Assembly: GCA_948485625.1 (NCBI GenBank)
Contig: CAOMRW010000010.1
Span: forward strand, 25 to 64,024
DNA: 64,000 nucleotides
Source: an uncultured Clostridia bacterium
GTDB lineage: Bacteria > Bacillota > Clostridia > TANB77 > CAG-508
Direction of reading: 5' to 3'
How positions within the stretch are numbered: the first letter of the stretch is position 1; the number at the start of each line of letters is the position of its first letter. Below are positions 13,684 through 56,342 of this stretch, piece after piece. Under the pieces are notes generated by a model. The model made no database searches, was not told where the DNA came from, and saw only the letters and a program-made list of their open reading frames with translations. Both the position numbers and the translations under genes were made by a program.

Positions 13684-16600
13684 TTACATTTCAATTTCTT
13701 TCCCTAAATAAACTGAATAAATATAAACTTTATCTACTTGTTTTTCTAGTGCTTGTTCTAATGCTTGTTTATATAAGTCTAATTGTTTTTTATATTTTTG
13801 TATTAATTCATATTCTTTTCCTTTTTCCACATAATCAGTTTTATAGTCTAATAATACTAATTTGTCATTTTTATCAATGTAGTATAAATCAATAATACCT
13901 TGTACTAAAATATTCTCATCTATATTTTGTTCATATATTTGTTTAGCTGGTGTATTTATATAAAATGGTTTCTCTTGATAAATTTCTTTTGCTGTTTTTA
14001 ATTGTTTCCATATTTCTGATTTTACAAATTCTAATATTTTATATGGATTAATATTATCTGCTTCTTTTTCAGTGATAATTTGCTTTAATTGTAAGTTTTG
14101 TATTAGTTCTTTTATTTTTTGTAAATCATAATCTTCTTTTGGATTTAATTTCTGCATACATAAATGTATTAAAGTTCCTTTTTGTGATGATGTTATTTTT
14201 TCTTCTTTTTCTTCTCTCATAAATTTGGGTTTTTCAAAAGTTATTTGATTTTCTTTTGTTTCATATTCGTTTTTTTCTAAACTTTCTATGTCAATTCCTA
14301 ATTGTTTTTCTTTCATTTGTTTTATCTTAGTAACTGAACTTTTTGTTGGTATCTCTATTGATAACTTATATTTATATTCATATTCTATTTTGTCTTTTAT
14401 TTCTTCTAATATATCTTTTTTATATTCTTTTTTATCTAATAATTCTATTATTTTTTTTGAATCACTTTCTTGTATTTCTTCTCCTTTTTCATTATTTATT
14501 ATTTCATTCGGTTCTATTCGATTTAATTGAATTAAATCATTTTTATCTGCCTTTTCATAAAGATATACTAATAAAATCCAATCTAAATATGTTTTATATT
14601 TTTTTACTAATATCGGATTTATTTTTCCATTCTTTCTAGCATAGATTTCTTCTTGCTTTTCTATGTCTTCAATTTCTTTTGTTAAATCATTTGAAATTCC
14701 TGTTATTATTAATTTTTCTTTTGCTCTTGTTAGTGCAACATATAGTATTCTCATTTCTTCTGAAATACTTTCATTTCTAATAATATTTTTTACTGCCTCT
14801 CTTGTTAATGTATCATATTGAACTTGTGCATTATAATCTATATATTTTGCTCCTATTCCCATATCTTGATGTAATAATACTGGATTTTTTCTTATGTCTT
14901 GCTCATTAAATTGTTTGTTTGTGTTCACTAAAAATACAATTGGAAATTCTAGTCCTTTACTTTTATGAATACTCATTATTCTAATTACATTATCATTTTC
15001 TCCTATAATTTTTGCCGAACTCATATCTCCTGAATTTATTTTTAATTTGTCTATAAAGTTTATAAAGTTATATAACCCTTTAAAACTAGCTGTTTCGTAT
15101 TTTTTGGCTCTTTCAAATAGTATTTTTAAATTTGCTTGTCTTAAATTTCCATTTGGCATTAGTCCTACATAATTATAATATCCTGTATCTGAATATATTT
15201 TCCAAATCAATTCATCTAATGCTAAATATTCTTGCTCTTTTCTCCATGTTTTTATGTTCTTTAAAAATTTTTCTATTTTTTGTTTTAGTTCTGGCTTTAC
15301 ATCTACTTTTGCTTTTAACATACAATTATAAAAATTATCATATTTATCTGATAGTCTAATTTCTACTAATTCATCGTCTGTAAATCCCCCTATATTTGAC
15401 CTTAAGACTGTTACAAGTGGTATATCTTGCATTGGATTATCAATTATTTTTAATAGACTCATTATTGTTTGTATTTCTATTGAATCTAAATATTCTTGAT
15501 TACTATCTGAAAATACTGGCATTTGTAAATTCATTATTTCCTGTTCATATATATTTGCTTTATCTTTTGTAGACCTTAATAAAATTGCTATATCTTTATA
15601 TGTTATATCTCTAAATAATTCATTTTTTCTATCATATACTTGATATTTATTATCTATTAATTCTTTTATTTTTTTTGCTACATATTTTGCTTCTAATTCT
15701 ATGTTTTCTATATGTTCTAATTCTTCTATATTTTCTATTTCTTCTTCATTATTATTTGTATATGTATAATTTTCTTGAACTTCTTCGTTTTCATCTTTTT
15801 TTGTATTTATTATATTTATTTCAATTTTTGCATTTTGATTAGATTTTTTATAATCTTCTGCTCCAAAATTTAAATATTCTTTTTCATCATATTCAACTTC
15901 TCCTAAGTTGTAACTCATTATATTTTTGAATATTAAGTTTGTAAATTCTAGTATATTATCCCTACTTCTAAAGTTTTTAAATAGCTGAATTTTTCTTCCA
16001 GTGAAACAGTTGGGACAGTCCAAAAATGTTTCACTTTTCTTGTTGTTTCTTGTCACATTTTGTATATCTGTTTTATCCTTGACATTTTCTGACAAATTTA
16101 TGAAACATTTTTGGACTGTCCCAATTGTTTCATTTCTGTCAGGTTTCGACAAAATTTCGAAACATTTTTGACCTGTCCCAACTGTTTCAAAATTTTGATA
16201 TTTGTCTAGGAATAGTTTTGGCATGGCTTGTCTGAATCTGTAAATACTTTGCTTTACATCTCCTACCATAAACATGTTATTTCCTCTTGATATTGATGAA
16301 AGTATGTATTCTTGTACTAGGTTACTGTCTTGATATTCGTCTATTGCTATTTCTTCAAATTTTTCTGTGTATTTTTTTGCAATTTCTGTTTTTATTATGT
16401 GTTGTTCTTTTTCTCCTTTTTCATTTATTACTGTTTCTACGTCTTTTACTAATATATTTAGTGCAAAGTGTTCTATGTCTGTAAAGTCTACTATGTTTTT
16501 TTCTCTTTTTCTTTTTGAAAATATGTTGTCAAATTCTATAATTAGATTTTCTAGGTTTTTTAAAACTTCATACATATTATATATGTCTTGATTTGATTGT

Positions 16601-17560
16601 TTTGAGTCTGATACAAATATTTTGTCTATTTTTTTATTGAATTTCTTTTTTACGTTGTCTCTTATGTTTTTTGCTTCTTCTTTTATTTCTGATTCTACTT
16701 TTTTTCTAGGCCATGTGATGAATTTTATATTTTGTGCTATTTCGTATGATTTGTCCCAGTTGTTTAAGTTTTGTTTTAGTGTGTCTAATTGTTTTATGTC
16801 TGTTTCTATTGCTTGTTTAAAAGTTTCTAATTCGTTGTCATTTTCTAAGCTTTTTAAAACATCTGTAAGTATTGCTATATCATCTATTAATTCTTCTTCT
16901 ACTTCTTCTAGTAATGTTTTTCCCCATTGTGTTTGGCTAAAGTCTTCATCTAGTTTGTTTTTTATATTAAACATTTCTATTTTTTCATTTAGCCATTTTT
17001 TAGGATATGGACTTGAGCTTATGTAATTATATATGTTTGTTATTAGTTCTTTTAATGGTGTATCGTCTTTATAACTTGTATATGTGTTTATTAGCTTTGT
17101 AAAGTCTTTGTCTTCTGAAAGATATTTTTCTTCAAATAGTTCATCTAGTATTTCTTGTTTTAGTAATTCTATTTCTGGTGTGTCTGCTATTCTAAAATTT
17201 GGTGATACATTTTCTAGTTGATAAAAGTTATTTTTTACAACTTCAAGACAGAATGAGTCTATTGTACATATGCTTGCCATATTTAATAATGTTATTTGTC
17301 TTTGTAGGTTTGCGTTTTCTGGGTCTTCTTCTAATTTTTTATATATTGCATTTAGTACTCTTTCTTTCATTTCTGATGCTGCTGCATTTGTGAATGTAAC
17401 TACTAGTAATTTGTCTATGTCTATATTTTCTTTTATTGCTTTGTTTATTATTCTTTCTACTAATACTGCTGTTTTTCCGGCTTCCTGCTGCTGCTGCAAT
17501 TAGTAAATTTGTGTCTTTTTCGTATATTGCTTGTTTTTGTTCTTCAGTCCAGTTTGGCAT
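13684..17560 (-). pseudogene. addA: ATP-dependent helicase/nuclease subunit A (AddA/RexA-type). It is split by a +1 frameshift inside the Walker A motif and carries an in-frame repeat insertion.
   Basis: The N-terminal ORF 17339..17560 (MPNWTEEQKQAIYEKDTNLLIAAAAGSRKN...) and the main ORF 13684..17499 (...EAGKTAVLVERI...) join as AAAGS-GKT if one C at about 17478-17480 is skipped. UvrD motifs are present: DEYQDSN, VGDVKQSIYRFR, NFRSR, VALTRAKEKL. C-terminal PD-(D/E)xK nuclease: GIIDLYYIDKNDKLVLLDYKTD. Confidence 0.85.
16002..16189. repeat. Three copies of a 32-nt palindromic repeat unit (family 1) plus spacers, located inside the addA reading frame
   Basis: Units at 16002-16033 (tgaaacagttgggacagtccaaaaatgtttca, inverted orientation), 16101-16132 (tgaaacatttttggactgtcccaattgtttca) and 16158-16189 (cgaaacatttttgacctgtcccaactgtttca). 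Further copies lie at 32083-32114 and 59524-59555. Confidence 0.9.
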
Positions 17561-17581
17561 TTTTCTTTTTCACTCCATTCA

Positions 17582-17630
17582 TGTCCAAGAGGGACGTTTC
17601 TTTTGGGACATTTTTGTCCATTTGGGACAG
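17582..17630. repeat. GC-rich palindromic repeat (family 2) in the addA 5' leader
   Basis: tgtccaagagggacgtttcttttgggacatttttgtccatttgggaca aligns with 63105-63154 and, inverted, with 63501-63535. It lies 22-70 nt upstream of the addA ATG. Confidence 0.85.
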
Positions 17631-17742
17631 ATATTGTTTTTTGTATTTTATCAAATTTGGTTGTAAAAAACAATATGATTACAAAAAAAGGAAGAGTATT
17701 AAGCTCCTCCTTTTTCAACTCATTATTCCTTAATCCCGACTT

Positions 17743-18159
17743 TTACAACTTTACAGTTCCAGCAATTGCAAAAAATGAAATCTTGTTAAGGTCATCTTCT
17801 GCCTTGTTCTGCTGCACCTTTGCATCAAATACATTGTCTGCTGCAACGTCAACTTCGTAAGTTGCATCCGGCACCTGCCTTGCTGCTTTCGCATAGGTAT
17901 GCAGTGGCTGTGAAATCGCTTCAACTTCATTTGCACTCGGATTAATTGCTTTGCCCAGCTGTCTCAAATGCTTTCCTTCTTCTGCGAACTGGCTCTTTGC
18001 ACGATTTGCTGTGTTGGTCAGGTTTTCAAGTTTCTGTACAGCTGCTTCGTGTTCCTTTACCCGCTGCTCAACATTTGCTGTTGCCTCAGCTACATTTGCC
18101 TCTGCGTCTTTGACCATATTAGCGATAACTTCTGCATACTTTTCTCTCAAATTTGTCAT
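17743..18159 (-). CDS. Hypothetical Ala-rich helical protein encoded by a compositionally foreign (about 45-48% GC) segment
   Basis: 138-aa ORF. The sampled line 17821-17880 is 29/60 G+C, against about 25% around it. Several stop-free overlapping frames confirm the GC anomaly. No recognisable domain. Confidence 0.55.
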   Translation of the reverse strand: MTNLREKYAEVIANMVKDAEANVAEATANVEQRVKEHEAAVQKLENLTNTANRAKSQFAEEGKHLRQLGKAINPSANEVEAISQPLHTYAKAARQVPDATYEVDVAADNVFDAKVQQNKAEDDLNKISFFAIAGTVKL

Positions 18160-18287
18160 AATTTTTCCTCCTGTTTGAGTTGTTATGATTGTTAAGTTCT
18201 ATTTTATTATATACTTAATTAACATAATTGTCAATATTTTCATCTAAATTATGTTAATTATATTGTATTTATTACTAAAATTTACAA

Positions 18288-18322
18288 AAGATGAGAATAA
18301 ACTATTTAGTTCATTCTCATCT
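18288..18322 (-). terminator. Intrinsic terminator downstream of 18360..18593
   Basis: Stem agatgagaat/attctcatct followed by a T-run (ttttg) on the minus strand. Confidence 0.6.
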
Positions 18323-18359
18323 TCATTTTACTTTATAAGCTTTCTTCTATTTTGCTTAA

Positions 18360-18593
18360 TTACTTAAGTACCTCACCATAATTAAGAATATCTTCTTTAT
18401 TAAACGGGTACACTTCTTCTTGCAATATTGCTGCAATGTCTAACCAGATTTTTGTTTCTTCAGATGCCATCTTTTCTTTGATGTAATCTACATCATTTTC
18501 TGTGTAGACTATTACTCCTTCTTTTAAATGGACATATGATTTTGCAAATTTCTTGTTACCAATTTCATGCTTAGTATTGTCAACTTGTTGCAT
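18360..18593 (-). CDS. Hypothetical small protein (77 aa)
   Basis: ORF with an upstream GGAGG-like RBS (aaaggaggtaacattATG on the minus strand). No recognisable domain. Confidence 0.5.
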   Translation of the reverse strand: MQQVDNTKHEIGNKKFAKSYVHLKEGVIVYTENDVDYIKEKMASEETKIWLDIAAILQEEVYPFNKEDILNYGEVLK

Positions 18594-18732
18594 AATGTTA
18601 CCTCCTTTAAATGTTGTTTACTTTTTATTCTGTCTTGCCTCTATTTGAGGTTATAAATACGATATGCTATTTAGCATTAATTGGTATTATACTATAAAAT
18701 CTAAATTTCTTCAACTGTTTATGTAAAGTTTT

Positions 18733-21426
18733 TTAAATATTATCATTTCTTATTGTTTCTATAATATTTTGTTTGTTAATTTTAGACATTGAATATTTCA
18801 TGATAATTCCTATGATAATAGCTACAAATAATATTGAAATCAATATAGGTTTTATAGGTAATACATATCCCATTCCTAAATCTGTTTTAAACATTTTGTA
18901 AATAAAATATGATAATATTGTTCCTATAGGTATTCCAATTATTAGTGATTTTAATCCATATAGTATACTTTCTAATCTAACCATTCTATTAAATTCTTTT
19001 TTTGTCATTCCTATTGATTTTAGCATTGCAAATTCTTTTTTTCTTAAATTCATATTTGTGGTTATTGTATTAAAAATGTTTGTTATTCCTATTAATGTTA
19101 TTACTGAGATAAATCCATATAAGAATATTGAAATTACTAAAGATATTGCATTTTGTTCTTTTACTAGTTCATCAATATTTGATATTATTATATCACTTTC
19201 GCTGATATTTTTACTTTTATAAAATTGTTTTATTTCGTCATCAACTTTAAAAGAATCTTTGGCATTAATTTCTATTTCATTTATAGAAGTATAACCTATT
19301 TTTTCAATATATTCATCACTTACAATTAGATATCCAATATTAGAATATTTTTCTTCCAATCCCATTGGTCTTTTATCTGTTTTTGCTAATATTTTTATAT
19401 TTATGTCTTTTTCTGATATATTATTATCTTGTTCTATTTCTTCATTTTCTGGTTTTACTGCACTTCCTATTGTTCCTGCTATTGTATCATTTTTCTTCCA
19501 AGTGTATATATTTCCTTCTACTTTTTTTCCTTCACTATTATATGTTAATCCATTATCAATTAAAATTGCACCGTCTTTATAATCATTATGTTTTCCACCA
19601 ATTTTGTTTACAAATCTTTCATATTCTTCATTTCCTAAAGACATTATTATTATTCTATCTTTAATTATTTCTCCATTTTCATCTTTTGTGCTAATTACAG
19701 TTTTTCCAAAATCACTTAAGTAGTCTCTGCTATCAACTGACATTGTTATTGTTCTTTTTATTGAATATTCATCTACTCCATCTAATTTGGCAATTTCTAA
19801 AAATCTTTCATATTTATTTTTTAAGGTATCTTCTGTTATTTTATCTCTTGACATTTCATATACCAACAAATTGTATTCTCTTTCTGTATAATAATTATTT
19901 GACATTTTAAATGCGTATTGTATAAAGCTTGATATTGTTATGAATATTACTATACTTACAATTATTGATATTACTGTTGTTCTATATTTTTTCTTGCTTC
20001 TTTTTAAATTTTTGTATGCAATTTCTCCTCCTGTTTTAAATATTTTTGTAATGATTTTTGGTGATTTTACTTTTTTAGCTTTTAATTTAATATCATCTGT
20101 ATTTCTTATTGCTTCTATTGGTGTTATTTTTGAAGCTTTTTTTGCTGAATTTCTACATGATAGCCATATTGTAATTGTTGATATTACTATACTTATTATT
20201 ATAGCAAACCATGAAATACTGTATGTTAAAATTATATTGTCTATATAGTCTTTTAATATATAATTTACTACCTTTAGCAAAATATCTATTGCGAATATTC
20301 CACTTATAATTCCTAAAGGAATTCCTATACATCCTAAAATAATTCCCTCAAAATATACACTTTTCTTAATTTGTTTTTTAGTTGTTCCTATGCTTGCTAA
20401 CATTCCATATTGTTTTAGTCTTTCTGTTATTGAAATTGCAAATCCATTTCTAATTACAAATACACTAGACACTAGAACTATTGCCATTATAACTCCACCT
20501 ACGCCATATAATGTATTCATCATATCATCACTTAAATTTGCACCTTCAAATGCTAATAATTCAAAATTTAATACTACTTCATATTTATAACTTTTATATA
20601 ATGCATTTCTTAATCCTCTAAATTCTTTTGCATTTTCTTTTTCATCACTAGTTTCCGCTTTTACCATTTGATTTATCTGTTCTGTATATTCTTGATATTT
20701 AGATACTTTTTTATATAAAACTGCTATATTTGCTTTTTCCTCTACCTTTTCCATTTTTGTTATAACTGTGTATCCTGGTGCACTATATTCTTCTATGCTC
20801 ATTGATGGTCTTTCTATTATACCAACAATTTTATATTCTCTTTTAGTTGTATTTATAATTTCTTCTTGAAGAATTCTTCCTTCTTCATCTTTTTCTCCAG
20901 TTAATAATGGATTATTTTGATTTAGTTTTTCTCCACTTGTAAGTTGTCTTTGTCCTATATCTAGTGTAATTGTATCTCCTATTTTATATTGTACTTTTCC
21001 ATTTGTTATAATATGTTTTGAAATAACTATTTCATTTTCATTTTCTGGTAATCTTCCTTCATCTAAATGTATTGCCATATTTCTTAAATATCCATCACTC
21101 ATTGATATTACATTTACATATGGTTTACTTTCATTTTTGCTATTTTCTAAATTTGCATATCCTAACTCTTCTGATAAATAATATTTTTCTACATTTCTAT
21201 TTTCTTCTACATATTTTAATTCACTTTTTGGTACTTCATAAAATATAGCATGAAAATTTCCACTATTTTCTTTATAATAATTTACAATTGAATGTTGAAA
21301 ACTTGTTACAATTCCTGCAACTCCACATATTAAAGCTGTTGAAAGAATAATACCTATAATTATAACTAATGAACGCTTTTTATTTAATTTTAAATCTTTA
21401 ATGCTTAAATCATTTAATATTTTCAT
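18733..21426 (-). CDS. ABC transporter permease, FtsX/MacB-like, with duplicated FtsX domains and large extracytoplasmic domains
   Basis: 897 aa. Two blocks of 3-4 TM helices with FtsX-type sequence (…QYGMLASIGTTKKQIKKSV…; …EFAMLKSIGMTKKEFNRMV…). Translationally adjacent to an ABC ATPase. Confidence 0.8.
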   Translation of the reverse strand: MKILNDLSIKDLKLNKKRSLVIIIGIILSTALICGVAGIVTSFQHSIVNYYKENSGNFHAIFYEVPKSELKYVEENRNVEKYYLSEELGYANLENSKNESKPYVNVISMSDGYLRNMAIHLDEGRLPENENEIVISKHIITNGKVQYKIGDTITLDIGQRQLTSGEKLNQNNPLLTGEKDEEGRILQEEIINTTKREYKIVGIIERPSMSIEEYSAPGYTVITKMEKVEEKANIAVLYKKVSKYQEYTEQINQMVKAETSDEKENAKEFRGLRNALYKSYKYEVVLNFELLAFEGANLSDDMMNTLYGVGGVIMAIVLVSSVFVIRNGFAISITERLKQYGMLASIGTTKKQIKKSVYFEGIILGCIGIPLGIISGIFAIDILLKVVNYILKDYIDNIILTYSISWFAIIISIVISTITIWLSCRNSAKKASKITPIEAIRNTDDIKLKAKKVKSPKIITKIFKTGGEIAYKNLKRSKKKYRTTVISIIVSIVIFITISSFIQYAFKMSNNYYTEREYNLLVYEMSRDKITEDTLKNKYERFLEIAKLDGVDEYSIKRTITMSVDSRDYLSDFGKTVISTKDENGEIIKDRIIIMSLGNEEYERFVNKIGGKHNDYKDGAILIDNGLTYNSEGKKVEGNIYTWKKNDTIAGTIGSAVKPENEEIEQDNNISEKDINIKILAKTDKRPMGLEEKYSNIGYLIVSDEYIEKIGYTSINEIEINAKDSFKVDDEIKQFYKSKNISESDIIISNIDELVKEQNAISLVISIFLYGFISVITLIGITNIFNTITTNMNLRKKEFAMLKSIGMTKKEFNRMVRLESILYGLKSLIIGIPIGTILSYFIYKMFKTDLGMGYVLPIKPILISILFVAIIIGIIMKYSMSKINKQNIIETIRNDNI

Positions 21427-22152: not shown

Positions 22153-22176
22153 TATATTTTTTCTCCTTCCTTTTGT

Positions 22177-22241
22177 GTCCAGTTACAACATAAGATATCT
22201 GTAATTTGCTATTACTCAAACAGCTATTCTAATTTGGGACA
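22177..22241. repeat. 65-nt repeat (family 3) bounded by GTCCA...TGGGACA, in the 5' leader of the ABC ATPase gene
   Basis: 58/65 nt identical to 63551-63615, in the same orientation relative to the downstream minus-strand gene. Confidence 0.85.
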
Positions 22242-22403
22242 CATCTTGTTTTTATATTCTTATTATAATTTTATAAAGTGACTTTTGAGTGACTTTTTCT
22301 ATTTAAATTTTGTCATTTTAATTTTAAAAATTTATGAAAACTATTGCTTAAATATTTTTATTAATATAAAATAAATGCATAATAATTTTAGGAGGATTTT
22401 AAT

Positions 22404-28578: not shown

Positions 28579-28633
28579 TTAAAACATCTCCATTCTTTAT
28601 CTAATGAAAGTTTATCATTTACTTTAGTGATTG

Positions 28634-28837
28634 TCAATTTTTATATTCTAGTATATCTCCTGGTGTACATTCTAAAATCTCGCAGATCTTATCTAATGTC
28701 GAAAATCTAATTGCTTTACCTTTATTGGTTTTTAAAATAGAAAGATTTGCTGTTGTTATTCCTATCTTTTGTGCTAATTCGTTTGATGATATTTTTCTTT
28801 TAGCCATCATTACATCTAAGTTTACTATTATAGACAT
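28634..28837 (-). CDS. XRE/Cro-type HTH transcriptional regulator (YozG-like)
   Basis: 67 aa. SSNELAQKIGITTANLSILKTNKGKAIRFSTLDKICEILECTPGDIL is a typical YozG-family sequence. Confidence 0.85.
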   Translation of the reverse strand: MSIIVNLDVMMAKRKISSNELAQKIGITTANLSILKTNKGKAIRFSTLDKICEILECTPGDILEYKN

Positions 28838-28851
28838 TTTTTCATATCCTC

Positions 28852-29361
28852 CTATATTGTTAAATCATTTTCTTCTTTATTATCAATAGCTACTTTATAT
28901 ATATTTTTCAATACCATCATTCCTATAGATAGAATTAAAAATATCATTGACATTAATATTATTATAATTAGATACATCATTTTAAAAGGTGTTTCAAATA
29001 TATTTCCTGATATCAAAAAGTTGCAGACTAATGCATTTAATGAAAATATAATTCCTATTAATAAGCAATACATAGATGTTCTTTTTAATCTTTTTTCAAT
29101 TTTTCTACTAAATATTATTTCTTTTTCAAAGCTACTAAATATTTTTTCAAATTCTAATATCATTATTAGTGCTGGTATTGCTGCAGTATATAAAAATGTT
29201 ATTTGTGTTATAATTTCAATTGATTTCTCATTTTCTAAATTGTTTTGAATATTTTTTATAAGTATTGGTGCACTAATCATTGATATTATACATGATATAA
29301 ATAATATAATTAAAAATATTTTTATTATAGAAGATATACTTCTTTTTCCTGTTACTTTCAT
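28852..29361 (-). CDS. DUF2975-like multi-TM membrane protein (usual partner of YozG-type HTH)
   Basis: Four predicted TM helices. Operon pairing with the small HTH gene. The family assignment is from memory. Confidence 0.55.
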   Translation of the reverse strand: MKVTGKRSISSIIKIFLIILFISCIISMISAPILIKNIQNNLENEKSIEIITQITFLYTAAIPALIMILEFEKIFSSFEKEIIFSRKIEKRLKRTSMYCLLIGIIFSLNALVCNFLISGNIFETPFKMMYLIIIILMSMIFLILSIGMMVLKNIYKVAIDNKEENDLTI

Positions 29362-29374
29362 TTTTATTTCTCCT

Positions 29375-30844
29375 TTAATATTTTTTTAATAATTTGTGTG
29401 TTCTATATTTTGATAAATTCCATTCTTGCCATTTGAATTTTCTGTTTTCATACTCATCTTTATATTGTTTTATATTATATCTTATACGTTCTTTTATTGT
29501 ATTCATGTAATCTTTTCTATTATTTGATAGTCCTTCTCCATTTTGATTTAATAGTTTTATTTTTTCGTTTATTGCATCTGTTCCTGTATTGTTTGTTATA
29601 TATCTTATATCTATATTATTATTTTCTGGGTCTAATAAGTATCTATCTATATTATTTCTTGCAATTATGTAATCTATATTTATAAAATTTAGTATTACAT
29701 ACATTGTAATTATGATTTCTATTGATGTTTTAAAAGTATCTATCTCCATACCACATAGCTTAGCTAATATTGGTAATAATATTAAAATTTCTGTTACTAA
29801 TATAAAATATACAAATAGTCTTAAATATGTATATCCATATTCTTGTTCATATAAATGCATTCTAAATATTGCTGATATTACAATTATTATTGTAAATATT
29901 ATTAATAAAATCTTTAAAGCTTTGTTTAGTTTTTCACTTTGTATATTTGGTGATTTTTTTAATAATATAAAGTTAATAAATGATACAAACATTAATTGGA
30001 AAAATCCTGTTCTTGCATATGTTGCATAGTCAAAATTAGCTGTTTTTCCTGCATTTATAAATAGATATTTAAATTGTATTATTGTAAATACACAGTAGAT
30101 TATGTTTAAAGATATTAATAATGTATTTATTGTGAATTTACTTATTTTTTTAATTTTTGCATTTTCTTCTGTATTTTCTTTTTTCATAAATGCTATTAAA
30201 AGTCCACTTATATATGCAAATATTACTATTATCCATACTATTCTAGCTGATATATCATTTATCGTTTCACTTGAAAATACTTTTGAAATGTTTTTTGATA
30301 TGTTTGTAAATAAACTTCCAAAAATACTGTCTGCTGATGATAATAGCATAATTATAATTATTATAATTGGTATTACTATTAGCATTGATTTACTTAATTT
30401 TTTTATAAATTCTATTTTTTTGTTTTGTGTTTCTTTCTTTTTTTCTATAAATTCATTTATTTGAAAATCTCCAATAAATTCAAATATTACATATACTGGT
30501 GTAAATGCTTTTTTTATAATATTTCTTATAAACCTATTTTCTGCTATTTTTCCTTCTGTTGTTTTTTCACACATTAATATTATTAGTGCAAAAATTACTG
30601 GTATGTTTAATATTCGAAAAAATGAATTGTTGAAAATAAAATATGTTAGCCCTAATAACATTATTGGAATTGCTATTAACATTCCTTTTTTGTTTTTTAT
30701 TTTTTCTTTTTCTTTGAAGTTATAGTATATTACTAGTATTGTAATTCCTAAAAATATTGTTACTGATATTCCTAGACTTTTGTTCCAAAAAAGTATTGAC
30801 TGTATTATACTTAATAATAAACTGCTATATAAGATTTTTTTCAT
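29375..30844 (-). CDS. Polytopic membrane protein (DUF4153/DUF4173-like)
   Basis: 489 aa with more than 10 hydrophobic segments. The family assignment is tentative. Confidence 0.5.
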   Translation of the reverse strand: MKKILYSSLLLSIIQSILFWNKSLGISVTIFLGITILVIYYNFKEKEKIKNKKGMLIAIPIMLLGLTYFIFNNSFFRILNIPVIFALIILMCEKTTEGKIAENRFIRNIIKKAFTPVYVIFEFIGDFQINEFIEKKKETQNKKIEFIKKLSKSMLIVIPIIIIIIMLLSSADSIFGSLFTNISKNISKVFSSETINDISARIVWIIVIFAYISGLLIAFMKKENTEENAKIKKISKFTINTLLISLNIIYCVFTIIQFKYLFINAGKTANFDYATYARTGFFQLMFVSFINFILLKKSPNIQSEKLNKALKILLIIFTIIIVISAIFRMHLYEQEYGYTYLRLFVYFILVTEILILLPILAKLCGMEIDTFKTSIEIIITMYVILNFINIDYIIARNNIDRYLLDPENNNIDIRYITNNTGTDAINEKIKLLNQNGEGLSNNRKDYMNTIKERIRYNIKQYKDEYENRKFKWQEWNLSKYRTHKLLKKY

Positions 30845-30963
30845 CGTTTTCTCCTTTATATATTTAAAATTTATATAAATTCTTATTTGTTGTTGCTAAC
30901 AGTTTATATTATCTTTTATTTTTTGTCAATACTTTTTTATCGTTTTTCGATATTCTATATTTA

Positions 30964-31776
30964 TTATATTTTATTACTATCTAGTTTCTTTTTCTCATTT
31001 ATTAGTAAACCTTTAATTTCTTCTATTGAAAGTTCAGTTATTTCTGAAATTTCTTCTATACTCATTTCTTTGTTTAGAAGTTTTTGGGCCGTTTTAATTT
31101 TTTCTTTTTTTATCCCTTTATTTTCTGCCCAATTCATAGAAGTGTTCCAATCTGATTCCCATTTATCTCTTAATTCAACCATTCTTCTCACTTCATCGTC
31201 TCCTGTTAAATAGTTCATTTCAACTCTAGCTTGTTTTAAAATTTTATTTTTTTCTTCAGCCATTTTTACTTTCCCCCCCTATCTTCATCATCAATGAAAG
31301 CTAACCATTGGTTTAATTTATCATTCATATCTGGATTTGAAGCTCTAAACTTAGGCAATTCTATGTAATAAGCTTTCACTACACTATTTATTTTGTAATC
31401 TCTATGTCTATCTAATACAGTTACAGTTTCTGACAAATATTCATCAAATCCTAATAATTCATAATTCTACTTGCATTTCTATATTTACAATGATTCCATC
31501 ATTTAATATAGCTTGTATGTCTAGTCTTCCGCCTTTTTCAATTTCTCTTAATTTTTCTAAATTAACTTCTTCTTTTATTGTTATATTTGAAATTTCTATT
31601 TTTAGTATGGCATTTAGAAAATCAATTAGGAACTTTTTGTTTCCCTCTCTACTAAAAAATGCCTTAAATATTATATCATTTTTTAAATTTAATTTTCTTT
31701 TTACTATTGTATTCTTTACTTTTTTTGGCAATAATTTTTCCTCCTTTATTATAACAATTTCTATTGTAAATATCAA
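30964..31776 (-). pseudogene. Degraded Rpn-family (YhgA-like, PD-(D/E)xK) recombination-promoting nuclease / putative transposase
   Basis: Three fragments lie in three frames. The N-terminus is (…DIIFKAFFSREGNKKFLIDFLNAIL…RLDIQAILNDGIIVNIEMQ). The middle piece is unlisted (ELLGFDEYL…YYIELPKFRASNPDMNDKLNQWLAFIDDEDRGGK). The C-terminus is (MAEEKNKILKQARVEMNYLTGDDEV…SIEEISEITELSIEEIKGL). About 50 aa of the core are missing. A C7/G7 homopolymer at 31273-31279 marks one frame junction. Confidence 0.75.
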
Positions 31777-32082
31777 GTAATTGTTATAACTTTTTGATAA
31801 ATATTTTCTATTTAGTTAATATTTGTATATTTTTCTTTTGTACACTAAATAGATTAATACCTCCTTCTTTTTATTTTTTATTTTTGGGTTTTTTGATTTA
31901 AATTTTGATTTTTAAATTTTTTTGAATTAAAATAAATATAATAATTAATTGAATTTTAAAAGCTACTAAATTAGCTAAATAGAATAAACTATTTATAACA
32001 TATTTAATAGCTCTTTGTAAACATTTTTTTATTTTTTACTTATCTTTTCATCGCAAGTTTCGACAAAAAAACTTGTAAATTA

Positions 32083-32114
32083 TGAAACATTTTTGGACTG
32101 TCCCCAATGTTTCA
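32083..32114. repeat. Family-1 palindromic repeat unit abutting or overlapping the trxA stop codon
   Basis: tgaaacatttttggactgtccccaatgtttca. The terminal tca (32112-32114) is the reverse complement of the trxA TGA stop. It is preceded by the companion motif gtttcgacaaaa (32058-32069), which is also seen at 16144 and 59499. Confidence 0.9.
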
Positions 32115-32417
32115 AAATTGTTCTAATAATTCATTTTTATCTCTAACTCCAACAAATCTTTTAAATTCTTTTCCATCTTTAAATATGATTAAAGTTGGTA
32201 TACTCATTACATCATATTTTAATGCTAAATTTTGGTTTTCATCTACATTAATTTTTCCTACTTTTCCTTTTCCTTGTAATTCATTTGCAAGTTCTTCTAT
32301 AATTGGTAACATCATTTTACAAGGTCCACACCAGTCTGCATAAAAATCTACTAGTACTGGTTCATTTGAATTTAAAACCTCTTTTTCAAAATTTTCAGAA
32401 TTTAATTTTAATTCCAT
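32112..32417 (-). CDS. trxA: Thioredoxin
   Basis: 101 aa. WCGPCK active site with a typical thioredoxin fold sequence. Confidence 0.95.
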   Translation of the reverse strand: MELKLNSENFEKEVLNSNEPVLVDFYADWCGPCKMMLPIIEELANELQGKGKVGKINVDENQNLALKYDVMSIPTLIIFKDGKEFKRFVGVRDKNELLEQF

Positions 32418-49950: not shown

Positions 49951-52900
49951 ATGGATGAACAACTAAAGGATAAAATATATAAAATATTAAATGAATTGCC
50001 AGATGAAAATTCATGGCTTGACTATAAGGAAATTCCTTACGAAAAAAATAAAAGAGCAGATTTTATTATAGATTTATGTGGCTTTTTAAATTCAAAAGAA
50101 AGTCATGGAAAAGATAAATTTATTATATTTGGAATTAGAAATAAAACAAAGGAAACATTTGGTATAAAATCAAAACCAATGCAAGATGATGAGTATTATC
50201 AACAATTAGCAGATATTATACAACCCAGACCATCTATTGAAACAGGTACTATCAATTTTAAAATAAAAAATAATGAAATATTGTTTGGATATATTTGGAT
50301 ACCAAAAGAAAATAATAATAGAGTATATTCAATAGCTAAAACTTATCCAGAAATAAAAAGAGGACAAAAAGAATCAATTAGTGACGAAATAAAATCTATA
50401 GTATATGCTTCTACATCATATATTAGAAAGGGAAGTTGCAATTATCCATTATCAGAATATGACCGACGTGAAATATATGAAATGGATAGAGAAAATAGTA
50501 TTAATATTACCACAATGCCACCAATATATTATAATCTTAATACTTCAGGTGAAAATGATAAGATATTAAAAGCCTCAATTATCTTTGGTGGGTGGGATGA
50601 AGAAAATGAAAATGATAAAAATGTTATAAGTAATTTTATTGGCAAACCATACGAAGAATGGATTTTACTACTAAGAACAATGCTTAAAGATGAAAATAAC
50701 ATTTTAGAATTTAAAAATAATAAATGGAAAATAAAGAATAGAGACTATAGTATAAAAAAGTATGCACCATATTTTTTTAAAGATGAATTGGACTTATTTA
50801 AAACATTTGCTATAAATATTCTTTCAGAGAGAAATCCAAAATTTGATTTAGAATCAGACAAAAGATTTATGGCAAATATTTATAAAAAGAATACAAAATA
50901 TTCGGAGTTTCTTAGAAAATCTGTTGCTGAAGTTCTGCCGATTATAACATCAAATTATAAGGAATTTAAAAATTGTAAAAATGATGCTGCTAATTTACCT
51001 TTAATTGTTGTTAGAAAGGTTTTAGAAAATAACGATTGGGAAATCTGGGCAAGCATAGATAAACTTTTACCTTTATTAGCAGAAGCTGCTCCTGAAGAAT
51101 TTCTAAATCAACTAGAAGATAAACTAATAAATAATGTTGAAACAATTAGAAAAATGTTTAGCGAAAATGAGTATTATGTTAGTACTTATAATTATTCTAC
51201 TGGGTTATATTGGGCTTTAGAATTAATTGCATGGGAATCTAGAAACTTGATTGAAGTATGTATGCTACTATGTAAAATATCGGCTTTTGATAAAAAAGCC
51301 ATAGAATATATAGCGAATATTATACTACCATGGTATCCTCAAACAAAAGCACCTATTGAAAATAGAATGTTGGTAGTTAAAAATATATTAAAAGAGAGTC
51401 CAGATACTGGGTGGGAACTTTTAAAAAACTTAATGCCTGGTAAAATAACCATAGCAATGCCATCTTACAAACCAAAATGGAACAATACTATTGAAGAAAA
51501 TGAAAATAAGGTTATTCAAAGTGATTATTGGGAACAAATCAATACATATATTGATTTAGCAATTACTAATTCCAAAACAAATACTAAAAAATTATGTGAT
51601 TTAATTGATATAATTGATAATGTTCCAAAAGATTTGTTTAATAAATTAATTAACAAATTATCTAGTACTGAAATTAAAAAAATTAATGAGAACAGAAAAT
51701 TTGTTATTTGGAATCATCTAGAGGACTTAATTATATGGCATAAAAGGACTGAAAAGTCTAAAAATTCATTACCAGAGGAAGCAATAAACAAACTTGAATT
51801 ACTATCATCTGATTTAAAGCCTAATAGCATACTGATATTTGCCAAAAGATATTTTAGAAAAGATACATGGCACTTAATAGATGACAGAACAGATTATACA
51901 ATTGGTGAGAAAAAATTACATGAACTGCAAATAAAATTAGTACAAGACATAATATCATTAGGAGATGAAAAAATTATTAATTTTTCTAAAACTGTTGAAG
52001 ATTCGTATATAGTTGGGGTTTGTGTGGCTGAACTTAAGGCTGAAAAACAATTAGAAAAACAAATACTTAATTGCTTAGAAAATAAAAATGCTAATTTAAT
52101 AGAATTTAGTAAAGGATATGTGTATAAACAGTTTTCTTTAAAGGGTTATCCTTGGATAAATGAATTAGGTATTTCAGATTGGAATAAACTTAAAAGAATG
52201 AATTTGCTATTAGTATTACCATGTACTAGAGAAACCTTTAACTTAGTTGAAGAGGTAATTGAAAAAAATGAATCTGATTATTGGAAAAAAGTAGATATAA
52301 GATTCGTAACAAATATTGAAGAATTAAATTATGCTATAGAAAAATTATTATGTGTTGGACGACCTGATAGAGCATTGTGGATATTAACATCAATGATTCA
52401 TGAAGATAAAAATTGTGATTATAATAAAGAGCTTGCCATAAAATGCTTAAAAGAAATGCTCCATTATCAAGAAAAAATTAATAATATGGAATCATATGAT
52501 ATTACTCAAGTAATTAGCAATTTACAAGAATCTAATGTTTCAAAAGACGAATTGTTTAATATTGAGTGGATATATTTACCATTATTAAATGGTGAAGAAT
52601 ATCGTCCTAAGACTATTGAACAGGCTCTTGCTAACGATCCAAGTGTATATAATGACATATTATGCCTTGCCTATAAGCCACACTCATTAGAGACAAATCC
52701 TCAAAAAGTAGATGAAAAAGTTGCAATTAATGCATATAGATTATTAGAACAATGGAATTTAGTACCAGGTCTCGAGAATGGCATAATAAATAAAAAGAAA
52801 TTAAATATCTGGTATAACCAGATGGTAGAAATCTGTACAGAATCAGATAGACTTGAAGTCGCATTATCTAACTTTGGAAAAGTTCTATTTCATTCACCAA

Positions 52901-53190
52901 AAAATAAAGATGGATTTTGGATTGATAAAAATGTGGCAGAGATTTTAAACATGGAAAATGCAGATATAATAAGAAATGGATTTCATATTGAAGCTTATAA
53001 TTCTCTTGGTGTTATAAATTATGATTCTGAAGGAAGTGTTTTTGAAAGTAAAGCATTAGAATATAATCAGAAAGCAGAAGAATCTGACAAAGAAGGATTC
53101 TATAGACTAGCAAAAGAAATGCGAAAACTAGCAAATACATATAAGTATAAAGCTGAAAATACAAGAGAGCATTACTTTGATTATGAATAA
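49951..53190 (+). CDS. Large (1079 aa) protein: N-terminal AlbA_2/Schlafen-like domain followed by about 900 aa of alpha-helical repeat-like sequence
   Basis: N-terminus ENSWLDYKEIPYEKNKRADFIIDLCGFLNSKESHGKDKFIIFGIRNKTKETFGI resembles the AlbA_2 (divergent AAA/Schlafen) signature E..L[DE][FY]K…A[FL].N…GG.I.[FI]G[IV]. No Walker motifs were seen. RBS ataggtggtg. Confidence 0.6.
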   Translation: MDEQLKDKIYKILNELPDENSWLDYKEIPYEKNKRADFIIDLCGFLNSKESHGKDKFIIFGIRNKTKETFGIKSKPMQDDEYYQQLADIIQPRPSIETGTINFKIKNNEILFGYIWIPKENNNRVYSIAKTYPEIKRGQKESISDEIKSIVYASTSYIRKGSCNYPLSEYDRREIYEMDRENSINITTMPPIYYNLNTSGENDKILKASIIFGGWDEENENDKNVISNFIGKPYEEWILLLRTMLKDENNILEFKNNKWKIKNRDYSIKKYAPYFFKDELDLFKTFAINILSERNPKFDLESDKRFMANIYKKNTKYSEFLRKSVAEVLPIITSNYKEFKNCKNDAANLPLIVVRKVLENNDWEIWASIDKLLPLLAEAAPEEFLNQLEDKLINNVETIRKMFSENEYYVSTYNYSTGLYWALELIAWESRNLIEVCMLLCKISAFDKKAIEYIANIILPWYPQTKAPIENRMLVVKNILKESPDTGWELLKNLMPGKITIAMPSYKPKWNNTIEENENKVIQSDYWEQINTYIDLAITNSKTNTKKLCDLIDIIDNVPKDLFNKLINKLSSTEIKKINENRKFVIWNHLEDLIIWHKRTEKSKNSLPEEAINKLELLSSDLKPNSILIFAKRYFRKDTWHLIDDRTDYTIGEKKLHELQIKLVQDIISLGDEKIINFSKTVEDSYIVGVCVAELKAEKQLEKQILNCLENKNANLIEFSKGYVYKQFSLKGYPWINELGISDWNKLKRMNLLLVLPCTRETFNLVEEVIEKNESDYWKKVDIRFVTNIEELNYAIEKLLCVGRPDRALWILTSMIHEDKNCDYNKELAIKCLKEMLHYQEKINNMESYDITQVISNLQESNVSKDELFNIEWIYLPLLNGEEYRPKTIEQALANDPSVYNDILCLAYKPHSLETNPQKVDEKVAINAYRLLEQWNLVPGLENGIINKKKLNIWYNQMVEICTESDRLEVALSNFGKVLFHSPKNKDGFWIDKNVAEILNMENADIIRNGFHIEAYNSLGVINYDSEGSVFESKALEYNQKAEESDKEGFYRLAKEMRKLANTYKYKAENTREHYFDYE

Positions 53191-53208
53191 AAAAGGAGAA
53201 AACTAGCA

Positions 53209-53853
53209 ATGGAAATTATTAAAACTATAGATTTATGGACAGAACAACACAATAACCATTATGAATGTTTTAATGGCGCTTTTGTAGATGGATTTGAAAA
53301 TAATAAAGCTCCATTTGATACATATAAAATTATTAAAAATTGTAATTGTATAATAACAGTTAATAATCCAGATGTTAATATTAACAACAAGCATAATGCT
53401 ATTATTTTTTATAAAAATAGTAGACCAGTTAGATTAGTTGTTATAAATAAAAATACAGATATTGATAAATGCATAAAAGTAGCACTAGAGCAATATTTTG
53501 AAAATTCTATATTGAAAGATTACTATGTCAAATATAATATAAAGTCATCTATTATAGATATGAAAGAAGAATCAATTTTTAAAATAACTGATAACACTAA
53601 AGTAGAAACAGATGTAGGATCTTGTGATAGATGGAAACTTTTATATAATATGCTAAAAGGTAGCTATACAGAAAGTAATACTTCTTATGGAAATTTTGAA
53701 AGTGATAGATATGAATTTATGCCTAATTTGTTTATAAAATATGAACTTAATACAGACACTGAAAAGTTTGAAATAGAGCATAAATGTGCGTTTATAAATA
53801 CTTTAAAGACTAGATTAATACCTATACAAGAGAATTCACCATTAACTAAATAA
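53209..53853 (+). CDS. Hypothetical protein (214 aa), orphan
   Basis: The ORF begins 18 nt after the upstream stop, with RBS aaaggag. No recognisable domain. Confidence 0.55.
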   Translation: MEIIKTIDLWTEQHNNHYECFNGAFVDGFENNKAPFDTYKIIKNCNCIITVNNPDVNINNKHNAIIFYKNSRPVRLVVINKNTDIDKCIKVALEQYFENSILKDYYVKYNIKSSIIDMKEESIFKITDNTKVETDVGSCDRWKLLYNMLKGSYTESNTSYGNFESDRYEFMPNLFIKYELNTDTEKFEIEHKCAFINTLKTRLIPIQENSPLTK

Positions 53854-53874
53854 GTTTGAAAGGAATTTGTTGAT

Positions 53875-54858
53875 ATGTTAGAAGAATTTTATGAGAGAAT
53901 AAGTCTTAAATCAGAATTATCTGATTTATCAAAAATGATATGTGAAAAATATAATTTAGGTCAATATATATCAGAAGAAATCATATTAGTAGGATATGAA
54001 GATTTTAACTTTATATTGACGACTGATATTGGCAAATTTTGTGTAAAAGTATTTAACAAAGAAAGAACTTATGAGGATGTAAAAAAGTATATTGATAGAA
54101 TAGAATTAGCAAATTCACTTAATATTAATACTCCAAAAGTATATAATTGTGATAATAGTACATTATGCGAAATAGTATTGAATGATACAAAGTTTAGATT
54201 ATGCGTATTTCAATATATAGATGGAAAGAGTTTTTATGATTTAAACGAAATACCAACTGAAACAGAAATTAAAAATATTATTGAGCAAATGGCTCATATT
54301 CATAATGCAAAATTAGAATCTGATTTCATCTATGATAAATGGACAATAACAAATTTTGTAAAGGAGTATGCAGAAAAAGGAAAATATTTAGATAATAAAT
54401 ACAATAAAATTTTTGAGTCTTTAGTCCATAAAATTGCAAGTGTAAAATTTGAAGAACTACCTACATCTTTTGTTCATGGGGATATTATTAGTTCAAATGT
54501 TATGAAAGATAGCCGTCATAAACTATGGATTATAGATTTTGCAGTATCTAACTATTTACCTAGAATTGTTGATTTAGCTGTAACTTCTTGTAATTTATGT
54601 CTAAATCCTGAAAGTATTGATAAAACAATAGAAAGTACAAAAATGATATTAGCTGAATATCAAAAGTATAATAAATTGACTGATTATGAATTAGTATGTT
54701 TTCCGCTATTTTACGATCTTGCTAATGCAATGGGAATACTACAAATTAGTTATTTAAATAGTCTTGGAGAAACATCAGAAGAAGATGCTTTTTGGCTATC
54801 TGAAAGTGAAAAAGGATTAAGTTTTAGTACGCCTGATTTTTGGAAAAATATTCTTTAA
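53875..54858 (+). CDS. Phosphotransferase-family (APH/choline-kinase fold) kinase-like protein
   Basis: Brenner-type catalytic loop FVHGDIISSNVM and the following WIIDFAVSN (DFG-equivalent). N-lobe FCVKVF lysine context. Confidence 0.75.
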   Translation: MLEEFYERISLKSELSDLSKMICEKYNLGQYISEEIILVGYEDFNFILTTDIGKFCVKVFNKERTYEDVKKYIDRIELANSLNINTPKVYNCDNSTLCEIVLNDTKFRLCVFQYIDGKSFYDLNEIPTETEIKNIIEQMAHIHNAKLESDFIYDKWTITNFVKEYAEKGKYLDNKYNKIFESLVHKIASVKFEELPTSFVHGDIISSNVMKDSRHKLWIIDFAVSNYLPRIVDLAVTSCNLCLNPESIDKTIESTKMILAEYQKYNKLTDYELVCFPLFYDLANAMGILQISYLNSLGETSEEDAFWLSESEKGLSFSTPDFWKNIL

Positions 54859-54924
54859 TATATAATTATTAAAAGAAGACAATATTACAATTATAACCAA
54901 TTGCATTATTGTCTTTTTATGTAT

Positions 54925-55818: not shown

Positions 55819-55849
55819 GATTTCACATCCTTTTCTTACTCTATACATT

Positions 55850-56197
55850 CTAAAACATTTGTTCTTCAATGTCAAGACTTTTACAATTTTTAATATTAAA
55901 ATTTATACTATTGAAAAGATACAATGCAACTTTATTTTGCTGTGCTGAATCCATTTCCATAATTTTAGAGGAAACAAAAATTGTATAAGGATAGTTTGCA
56001 AAGTTAACAGTAGTAGTTCTGTATTCTATATTAATTCCTTTTAGCAAGTTATCAAAATATTTATACATTTCTTTTTTATCATATTCTAAATTAGTATGAC
56101 TGTAATTATCACACATACATATTGCTAATCTTAATTTATTTTCTACATCCATATCTTTTATTATATCTATTACATAATTTAATTTTTCATCATTCAT
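55850..56197 (-). CDS. Hypothetical protein (115 aa)
   Basis: ORF only. It sits upstream of, and is co-oriented with, the ORF6N gene. Confidence 0.45.
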   Translation of the reverse strand: MNDEKLNYVIDIIKDMDVENKLRLAICMCDNYSHTNLEYDKKEMYKYFDNLLKGINIEYRTTTVNFANYPYTIFVSSKIMEMDSAQQNKVALYLFNSINFNIKNCKSLDIEEQMF

Positions 56198-56281
56198 ATT
56201 TTTTAGTTCCTTTCAATTTTTACTTTTTGGGGTATGGGCTGTAAAACCCATATTGAAATTTGTGCAAGAGTACAAATTCAT

Positions 56282-56342
56282 TGCTTGCTGGGACACAAAT
56301 TTTGCATTTGGCGTATACACAAATGCAGTGCTTGCTGGGACA
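56282..56342. repeat. Direct repeats TGCTTGCTGGGACA (x2, 47 bp apart) flanking an 8-bp-stem palindrome, in a GC-enriched spacer
   Basis: 56282-56295 and 56329-56342 are identical. TGCATTTG…CAAATGCA lies at 56303-56327. Additional small palindromes lie at 56231-56280. Confidence 0.8.

Follow-up and report, generated by a model that had tools for sequence, protein, structure and literature searches.

A REPIN-like doublet in frame within addA, and its dispersed repeat family, in uncultured gut Clostridia

How three copies of a short palindrome came to lie in frame inside the gene for a DNA repair helicase, and what kind of repeat they represent, is the question raised by a 64,000-nt stretch of DNA from an uncultured Clostridia bacterium (GenBank assembly GCA_948485625.1, contig CAOMRW010000010.1, positions 25–64,024), referred to here as the window and numbered from its first letter. 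The gene is addA, whose main frame runs on the minus strand over 13684–17499 (1271 codons from the first TTG) and encodes UvrD-type helicase and PD-(D/E)XK nuclease domains. The encoded protein has 8000 AddA homologues, the best of them 73–82% identical and named "helicase-exonuclease AddAB subunit AddA" by a source, and it matches Bacillus subtilis AddA (PDB ID 3U44) with an E value of 6e-56. We consider it likely that the palindromes are repetitive extragenic palindromic (REP) sequences of a non-autonomous family of the REPIN type (REP doublets forming hairpins), that this family has a transposase resembling REP-associated tyrosine transposases (RAYTs) in uncultured low-GC gut Clostridia, and that one doublet entered a loop of AddA. 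The gene holds one canonical inverted REPIN doublet and one extra REP singlet, not three equivalent insertions.

The repeat units and their position in AddA

A search for TGAAACA-N18-TGTTTCA with at most one mismatch returned five matches in the window, at 16002, 16101, 16158, 32083, and 59524. The expectation from the shuffled window is 0.06, and none of 100 shuffles reached five; for the whole 32-mer with at most three mismatches, four copies were present against 0.00 expected. The three units within addA occupy 16002–16033, 16101–16132, and 16158–16189 and, as the initial annotation had described, two share one orientation and one, 16002–16033, is inverted. The arms of 16002–16033 and 16101–16132 are 97% complementary, and the unit at 16158 has one arm mismatch (CGAAACA) and the core GACCTGTCC. 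The repeated element exceeds 32 nt, each unit having a conserved TTCGACA/TNGACA box region on one side. Within addA, the unit at 16002–16033 (consensus orientation on the minus strand, encoding ETFLDCPNCF) forms the left arm of the doublet and the unit at 16101–16132 (plus strand, encoding ETIGTVQKCF) the right arm. They are separated by a spacer of 67 nt (16034–16100) containing TGTCA/TGACA "GACA boxes," which codes for the residues between ...CFI and ETFLD (NLSENVKDKTDIQNVTRNNKKS) and resembles intergenic REPIN spacers such as that at 3636–3700 of the related locus L015. The extra singlet on the plus strand, 16133–16189, consists of its own boxes (25 nt, tttctgtcaggtttcgacaaaattt) and the 32-nt unit 16158–16189; its 57 nt correspond to 19 codons encoding ETVGTGQKCFEILSKPDRN, and it is a direct repeat of 16069–16125 with 74% identity.

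The two remaining window copies are plus-orientation singlets with a box region and fall in one window repeat family. The copy at 59487–59555 (unit 59524–59555) is intergenic, between an ABC_trans_CmpB-family gene (58847–59398, minus strand) and the next gene. The copy at 32046–32114 lies directly downstream of a thioredoxin gene (32112–32417, minus strand). Both had been reported as intergenic, but the latter is not purely so: the last three bases of its unit (TCA, 32112–32114 of 32083–32114) are the minus-strand TGA stop of the thioredoxin gene. This singlet is also found at one edge of an extra segment of ~3.5 kb (28579–32111) between the genes for a penicillin-binding protein and the thioredoxin, which adjoin each other in the related loci L008 and L009; the segment holds DUF2975 and DUF4153 genes and a PDDEXK_2 (Rpn-like "transposase") fragment at 31459–31776. 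A scan of the window against Rfam at gathering thresholds returned one tRNA only, with no RNA family covering the units. When the window was searched for a transposase or other autonomous element, just two candidates came up, the PDDEXK_2 (Rpn-like) fragment (31459–31776) and a large serine recombinase (56400–58184), neither of them flanked by units.

The insert in AddA is positioned between helicase motifs III and IV, with VGDVKQSIYRFR upstream and NFRSR downstream. After VGDVKQSIYRFR the protein reads QAMPKLFLDKYQNF-ETVGTGQKCFE-ILSKPDRN-ETIGTVQKCFI-NLSENVKDKTDIQNVTRNNKKS-ETFLDCPNCFT-GRKIQLFK, followed by NFRSR, and the three unit translations first proposed (ETVGTGQKCFE, ETIGTVQKCFI, and ETFLDCPNCFT) all hold, with no stop from any unit in the addA frame. 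This frame splits the unit 1+30+1, so that codon boundaries are kept in both orientations; on direct reading, the TGA frame is the only closed one of the three unit frames, whichever the orientation, and the other two contain no stop. Compared with B. subtilis AddA, in which residues 467 and 468 are contiguous, 56 residues are unmatched, fewer than the approximately 64 extra codons estimated at first. That the segment is an insertion is borne out by unrelated AddA proteins, which contain no homologous segment: the stretch GDVKQ..NFRSRx has a mode of 46 aa and a range of 40–71 aa among 142 representatives of 50%-identity clusters, compared with 102 aa in the window AddA. Four cysteines are present in the insert (C..C..CxxC), and their codons arise incidentally from TGT in the TGTTTCA arm and from GACTGTCCC in the core. 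An AlphaFold2 model covering ORF (open reading frame) residues 1–800 has a mean predicted local distance difference test (pLDDT) score of 83, with residues 443–497 below 50 between a confident helix (427–436) and motif IV. The structural modeling called for in the initial annotation thus gives a low-confidence, floppy loop, and the insert is probably a disordered excursion of a naturally variable surface loop. At the nucleic acid level the repeat region is predicted to be able to form a very stable hairpin, with folding energies of −44 kcal/mol as single-stranded DNA (z −7.9) and −72 kcal/mol as RNA (z −9.9).

The repeat family and its associated transposase

The dispersal of the unit was followed in a census of the window and 134 loci (labelled L###) amounting to ~1 Mb of related gut-metagenome DNA. 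The strict A-type pattern (TGAAACA arms) reached seven loci in two GTDB species, a narrow range that is an artefact of the pattern and not the host range; with an R/Y-degenerate arm pattern, the metagenome matches listed were mostly from human gut. The unit is present in the window outside addA as well as in related genomes and metagenomes, the census comprising 211 units in 158 elements at 64 distinct sites. The count of copies inside genes that had been proposed as a check gives 184 of 211 units outside long open frames and 27 inside frames of at least 120 aa, mostly addA copies. Of the long genes with a known function in the window and the 134 loci, addA alone contains units.

The unit consensus, TGAGACAaaTTtGgACTGTCCCaatTGTCTCA, has a 7-bp stem, an 18-nt interior, and an offset GGAC-N-GTCC core. 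Its arms covary, with 158 TGAGACA/TGTCTCA pairs, 17 TGAAACA/TGTTTCA pairs, and 18 mixed. All 51 inverted neighboring pairs share one polarity, the GGGACAG unit coming first and the CTGTCCC unit second, and the two units of each doublet are mutual reverse complements, though interiors vary between sites. Same-orientation pairs account for only two of the 53 adjacent pairs, one of these being the second and third addA units of the window (+,+). On its inner side nearly every unit has at least two TTCGACA/TNGACA boxes spaced ~10–11 nt apart, and sequence conservation ends exactly at the outer end. Full elements are 83–177 nt long. They are found close to gene boundaries, with 36 of the 124 unique outer ends abutting a Shine-Dalgarno sequence and units often abutting, overlapping, or supplying the stop codons of neighboring genes.

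Two comparisons capture elements in different states. At the pyrH-frr junction a 95-nt REPIN doublet is present in 17 contigs, whereas L135/L136 lack it. The sequence is GTAAAATAAAAAGGAG at the empty site and GTAAAA[TGAGACA...TGTCTCA]AAAAGGAG at the filled site; no target duplication separates the two, and the TGA of the REP takes the place of the TAA stop. In L015 and L095 a doublet and a singlet, respectively, lie between flanks that are 99–100% identical. The difference is a 97-nt indel of one unit plus spacer, bounded by the 7-nt TGAGACA arms, which is the expected product of slippage between arms and would explain singlets, including the single-unit addA alleles. Mobility of the family is supported by polymorphism between near-identical sequences (L015 and L095, and the addA genes of L008 and L009), by the filled and empty pyrH-frr site, and by the flanked RAYT-like gene described below.

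Inverted units forming long pairs with inward-facing boxes enclose one ORF of 248–254 aa in L104, L035, and L135/L136. The encoded protein matches the Pfam family Y1_Tnp with 28–47 bits (cutoff 23), and its best NCBIfam model is REP_Tyr_transpos, "REP-associated tyrosine transposase" (NF047646; 58.5 and 69.9 bits). It has 1049 homologues at E ≤1e-5. A profile of 35 of its homologues found Escherichia coli TnpA-REP (PDB ID 4ER8) as its best PDB match (E 0.0011), in an alignment that pairs the HUH and Y-x3-NPV motifs; His-60, His-62, and Tyr-120 are invariant in the 35 proteins. A phmmer search of the PDB with the single protein returned no match, and only the profile reached 4ER8. An extra helix-turn-helix (HTH) is present at the C terminus. 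In L104, L135/L136, and L137/L138 the gene has recD2 on one side and a comF-like gene on the other, with proteins 52–77% identical; in L035 only the comF-like neighbor is visible. RAYTs have been described as holding a fixed genomic position with flanking REPs (bioRxiv 10.1101/2021.07.10.451892; PMC5581495), and Group 1 RAYTs have been noted in Clostridia (PMC5581495).

A palindrome with a classical GTAG tag, AAGTAGTGGGGACACTACTT, precedes the RAYT homologue of L137 (9792–9809) and L138 (6031–6048); this protein is 52% identical to that of L104 and holds the same recD2-comF position. Transposase and repeat, this suggests, co-diverge in these lineages.

The addA loop itself was compared in the 120 closest AddA proteins, which are 73–82% identical and all derive from uncultured Clostridia metagenome-assembled genomes or gut metagenomes. 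Loop lengths are discrete (47–50, 59, 76–79, 83, and 87 aa), and the loop states are scattered across the AddA tree. Loops of 47–50 aa hold one recognizable unit (e.g. FETVGTGQICLEG) or a decayed unit (e.g. YKPVENDTNCIG), and judged by these sequences one unit's worth merely replaces a loop of normal length. Loops of 76–79 aa hold two units, in the order ETVGT..KCL, spacer, and ETNLDCPxCL. The addA genes of L008 and L009 are 97% identical with loops of 79 and 51 aa, the difference being the doublet, and L013 carries a different TGTCCC/GGACA-rich repeat at that position. The two-unit alleles of the window, L008, L011, L014, and L126 align with identical junctions and alignable spacers, which cannot prove orthology of the insert because all REPIN spacers share the box structure. 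In this alignment mean pairwise identity is 0.86–0.87 for the units, 0.73 for the spacer, and 0.67–0.78 for third positions in the flanking codons. Each of the five window units is of the A type (TGAAACA), whereas the nearest relative, L010, and other relatives carry G-type (TGAGACA) units in addA, and L014 carries a G-type unit in an intergenic copy as well. The addA copy thus follows the REP population of its own genome, which suggests turnover or gene conversion of the addA units after the lineages split.

Origin of the addA insert and comparison with known systems

The full element consists of an inverted REP unit, a spacer with phased TGTCGAA/TTCGACA boxes, and a forward REP unit, which together can adopt a long hairpin. 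By analogy with REPIN-RAYT systems, the family would be copied in trans by the putatively single-copy RAYT-like HUH tyrosine transposase, which would work on single-stranded hairpin DNA and leave no target duplication. One doublet would have landed in, or replaced, the AddA loop that leads from the helix after motif III to the strand entering motif IV. It may have survived there because the frame splits the unit 1+30+1, two frames are stop-free, the length is a multiple of three, and the loop tolerates length changes. The window lineage would later have gained the REP singlet with boxes (57 nt) and a 12-nt spacer, giving the total insert of 56 residues. Because the units are palindromic, their 7-nt arms are direct repeats, and slippage between these arms would turn doublets into singlets and thereby yield an allelic series of one, two, and three units. 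It is also possible, though rather unlikely in our view, that the addA REPIN still serves as a live substrate, either for the RAYT-like enzyme or for gene conversion among the REPs of the genome; the genome-specific arm variant, the conservation of the units above synonymous sites, and the range from one to three units between strains point in this direction.

Several observations weigh against the proposal that the units are REPs of a RAYT-dependent family. The NCBIfam match of the RAYT-like ORF falls below the curated cutoff of 80 bits. The 64-kb window contains no RAYT gene, and the RAYT association is drawn from related contigs with G-type units, whereas those of the window are of the A type. 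Described REP superfamilies carry a GTAG or CGTC tag, in contrast to the units here, where this tetranucleotide is found neither in the consensus nor in its flanks. Copy number also seems low, with ~3 non-addA units in ~160 kb of unselected sequence (the window plus L008–L014), which suggests tens of units per genome. In addition, the addA units are more conserved than neighboring synonymous sites, so that strict neutrality of the insert is not established. The "empty" addA alleles are not clean either, having the same length as single-unit alleles and resembling decayed units; consequently one ancient insertion is inseparable from repeated insertion or allele exchange.

Other origins were considered against the same evidence. 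The 32-bp terminal inverted repeats and variable interior of the doublet would suit a classical miniature inverted-repeat transposable element, that is, an element derived by deletion from a DDE-type insertion sequence and mobilized by cut-and-paste, with the RAYT-like gene flanked by coincidence, and phased subterminal repeats are typical of some DDE transposon ends. We regard this as very unlikely, as the filled and empty pyrH-frr sites differ without target-site duplication and the outer flanks show neither conserved sequence nor duplication. No DDE transposase is found between units, the Y1/HUH protein being the only ORF enclosed repeatedly (three lineages, 52–77% identity), and a double flank by chance is very unlikely at ~1 unit per 50 kb. 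Sites for a host DNA-binding protein, either a regulator or a nucleoid protein, selected at promoters and 5′ untranslated regions and represented in addA by a functional intragenic site, would be another source of dispersed palindromes. The outer ends lying directly against Shine-Dalgarno sequences (36 of 124), the phasing of the boxes at about one helical turn, arms that covary as in a dimer site, and the conservation of the addA units above synonymous sites are in keeping with this, but many copies are located at the 3′ ends of genes or between convergent ones, their presence varies between near-identical strains, and they flank a transposase gene. Protein binding and mobility are compatible, and the C-terminal HTH of the RAYT-like protein could itself bind the boxes. 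Selection as host binding sites alone seems quite improbable.

An intragenic switch is a further reading, in which the units are sites for a site-specific recombinase and the 67-bp segment between them toggles or recodes AddA. Intragenic invertons have been reported in gut bacteria, the 97%-complementary 32-bp inverted repeats enclose a short segment, the unit admits a 13-6-13 division resembling that of a recombinase core site, and the large serine recombinase gene is encoded in the window. Inversion would, however, convert a conserved TCA serine codon of the spacer to TGA and truncate AddA, and the two-unit alleles among the 120 relatives, a sample biased to intact ORFs, show one spacer orientation only. 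The recombinase is of the integrase type and lies beside a tRNA in an apparent integrated element, the same doublets flank the transposase gene, and the polymorphism observed is insertion or deletion rather than inversion, leaving the switch a remote prospect. Most remote of all appears a native protein module, specific to the lineage and containing cysteines, that expanded through internal duplication, with intergenic copies unrelated or derived from addA. It would agree with the normal loop length of the single-unit state, the loose likeness of FETVGT to B. subtilis FTESGEG, and the four cysteines (C..C..CxxC), yet the same 32-mer, boxes, and doublet architecture occur at 64 non-addA sites including those around the transposase gene, AlphaFold2 assigns the insert no fold, and the cysteine codons follow from the unit sequence.

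Known sites and repeats were also matched to the units. The Firmicute LexA box GAAC-N4-GTTC, cre, parS (TGTTTCAC/GTGAAACA), and the Spo0A 0A boxes do not fit in half-site order or spacing; the 0A box (TGTCGAA) matches the spacer boxes. These transcription-factor readings were rejected also because they leave the intragenic copies, the strain polymorphism, and the flanked transposase unexplained. On direct reading, CRISPR repeats, dif/Xer sites, and integron attC sites match neither the sequence nor the arrangement.

For the REPIN reading the closest known system is REPIN-RAYT of Pseudomonas, E. coli, and other Proteobacteria (PMC3116915, PMC3337134, PMC5581495; PDB ID 4ER8). Both consist of short imperfect palindromes that are mostly extragenic and placed at gene ends, with a predominance of inverted doublets capable of long hairpins, singlets as doublet remnants, one HUH/Y1 transposase gene that lies between inverted REPs and keeps its chromosomal position across lineages, and no target duplication. 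The family described here differs in its host, an uncultured Clostridia lineage of ~25% GC, in the unit (7-bp stem, 18-nt interior, offset GGAC-N-GTCC core, and phased GACA boxes beside each unit), in a transposase of ~250 aa with the extra C-terminal HTH, in an apparently low copy number, and in having one doublet intragenic. IS200/IS605-derived elements likewise depend on a HUH Y1 transposase and have hairpin ends and no target duplication, but their ends are asymmetric (left and right end, LE/RE) and they insert 3′ of a fixed tetra- or pentanucleotide, whereas no conserved flank is found in the present family.

The initial annotation had likened the insert to Rickettsia palindromic elements (RPEs). 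The analogy is fair for behavior, in that both place palindromic repeats in frame in functional genes, without disruption and at fold-compatible positions; membership in RPEs lacks support, as colonization of many genes is not seen here, and the REP/REPIN label fits better. We know of no dedicated transposase for RPEs, whereas a RAYT-like gene is associated with this family. RPEs are 100–150 bp long, form up to ten families, and decorate, within a single genome, dozens of genes that are unrelated to one another (44 in R. conorii, PMC10969869), compared with addA alone in ~1 Mb here. Host and base composition make homology to RPE families 1–10 unlikely.

The claim of novelty made for the insert is narrowed by earlier work: the case is apparently undescribed in Clostridia, but in-frame REPs in repair genes have been reported (PMC3733652). 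In that study Di Nocera, De Gregorio, and Rocco (2013) described REP singlets, dimers, and clusters encoding 20–82 residues in frame, clustering in genes of replication and repair such as UvrABCD, RecBCD, DnaE2, and the UvrD/Rep helicase. The recB REPs of Xanthomonas lie at about the same site in two species, a decorated gene can be the sole one in its genome, and REP termini provide stop codons to neighboring ORFs (PMC3733652). The REPs in their cases bear a GTAG or CGTC tag and come from Proteobacteria, Opitutus, and Rickettsia, and the article mentions Firmicutes or Clostridia 0 times. The present case differs in its target, AddA being the Firmicute counterpart of RecB, and in the visible strain series of one to three units.

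The Walker A frameshift, the wider window, and significance

Upstream of the insert, addA has a second unusual feature. The true 5′ end of the gene is found at 17480–17560 on the minus strand (ATG at 17560, 27 codons, MPNWTEEQKQAIYEKDTNLLIAAAAGS) in a frame different from that of the main ORF, and a single extra C at 17479 (within 17476–17482, minus strand) separates the two. The Walker A region reads AGC-C-GGA-AAA-ACA, and skipping the C restores the canonical GSGKTAVLVER; the peptide predicted across the site after a +1 shift is AAAGSGKTAVLVER. An extra C occurs in eight relatives from independent assemblies (L008–L014 and L126): L010, L014, and L126 have the same single extra C as the window, and L008, L009, L011, L012, and L013 have two (GCA-C-GGA AGC-C-GGA). 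Each extra C creates a zero-frame CGG codon and a +1 GGA codon. The intact relative L139, without the extra C, reads GGAAGTGGAAAAACA. The frameshift leaves 112 of the 120 close relatives with called proteins that lack Walker A, compared with its presence in 127 of 150 distant representatives. The codon CGG is used in none of 15,574 codons in 30 long window ORFs, and a search of the window for a second frameshift site of the CGG type found that only addA qualifies. The remaining 1,200 addA codons are conserved, so the gene is not a pseudogene in decay. A C inserted 5′ of GGA to make the very rare CGG is a reported +1 frameshift motif in glass-sponge mitochondria (reviewed in PMC5009743). In addA, CGG is possibly a hungry or unassigned codon at which a +1 shift, programmed or compensatory, takes place, and this site may be more novel than the REPIN insert.

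The surroundings of addA were also examined. No addB adjoins addA in the window or in seven relatives (L008–L014), and among the window long ORFs searched there is no second PD-(D/E)XK helicase-nuclease subunit. Upstream of addA (13684–21426; L008–L014) are genes for a MacB/FtsX-type ABC permease or for Abi_2 and an M29 peptidase. A 138-aa ORF without a Pfam match (17743–18159) is wedged between addA and the ABC permease gene; the 16001–18000 bin has a G+C of 0.30 compared with ~0.22–0.25 around it, and this ORF, clearly higher in G+C, is probably foreign.

A second dispersed repeat of ~60 nt, (GTCCCAAA)TGGACAAAAATGTCC(C)AAAAGAAACGTCCC...TGGACA, is found in the window at 17567–17626, 63091–63150, and 63502–63561 and in L011 (~3781), L135 (~11553), and L013 (1440–1523). 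It lies directly upstream of the Shine-Dalgarno sequences of addA (in relatives too), ileS, a DUF1653 gene, and others, and a relative of it is inserted in frame in the L013/P0023 addA loop. The ~60-nt repeat and the REP unit have a GGGAC(N)GTCC core in common. Two intergenic regions, 22172–22251 and 63546–63625, share an 80-nt direct repeat (86% identical) that starts with TGTCCAGTTAC and ends with TTTGGGACA. At 8431–8585, between an unannotated 204-aa ORF (7800–8414) and a cohesin/LPXTG gene (8604–9626), there is a near-perfect hairpin with 74-nt arms (88% complementary), a 7-nt loop, and G-rich motifs (GGGGATAAGGGGCCAGGTC), which may belong to another palindromic element family. The region 49951–58800 is a probable integrated element, in which the large serine recombinase (56400–58184) lies beside a tRNA (58728–58800), together with a 1079-aa Schlafen/AlbA_2 protein, an APH-type kinase, and a reversed GC skew at 50–54 kb.

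Nearly all work on REPIN-RAYT systems concerns Proteobacteria, and such systems are generally called strictly extragenic. The family described here would extend their logic to low-GC gut Clostridia, which are abundant and uncultured, with an architecture of its own (phased GACA boxes and an HTH-bearing transposase), and would add an in-frame element in the RecB-like subunit of the double-strand-break repair machine. It also adds a natural strain series of decayed, one, two, and three units, which makes it testable whether such elements are neutral passengers in tolerant loops and why they recur in repair helicases, an observation noted in 2013 without explanation. If the +1 shift at the unused CGG is confirmed across the clade, it would be a bacterial counterpart of the C-GGA sites of glass-sponge mitochondria and could matter more than the insert. 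If the addA REPIN were indeed a live substrate, a domesticated transposase would keep producing length variants of the main double-strand-break repair helicase, or an extremely stable hairpin in its mRNA. REPIN activity would then be linked to the control of recombination, possibly in concert with the +1 frameshift in Walker A.

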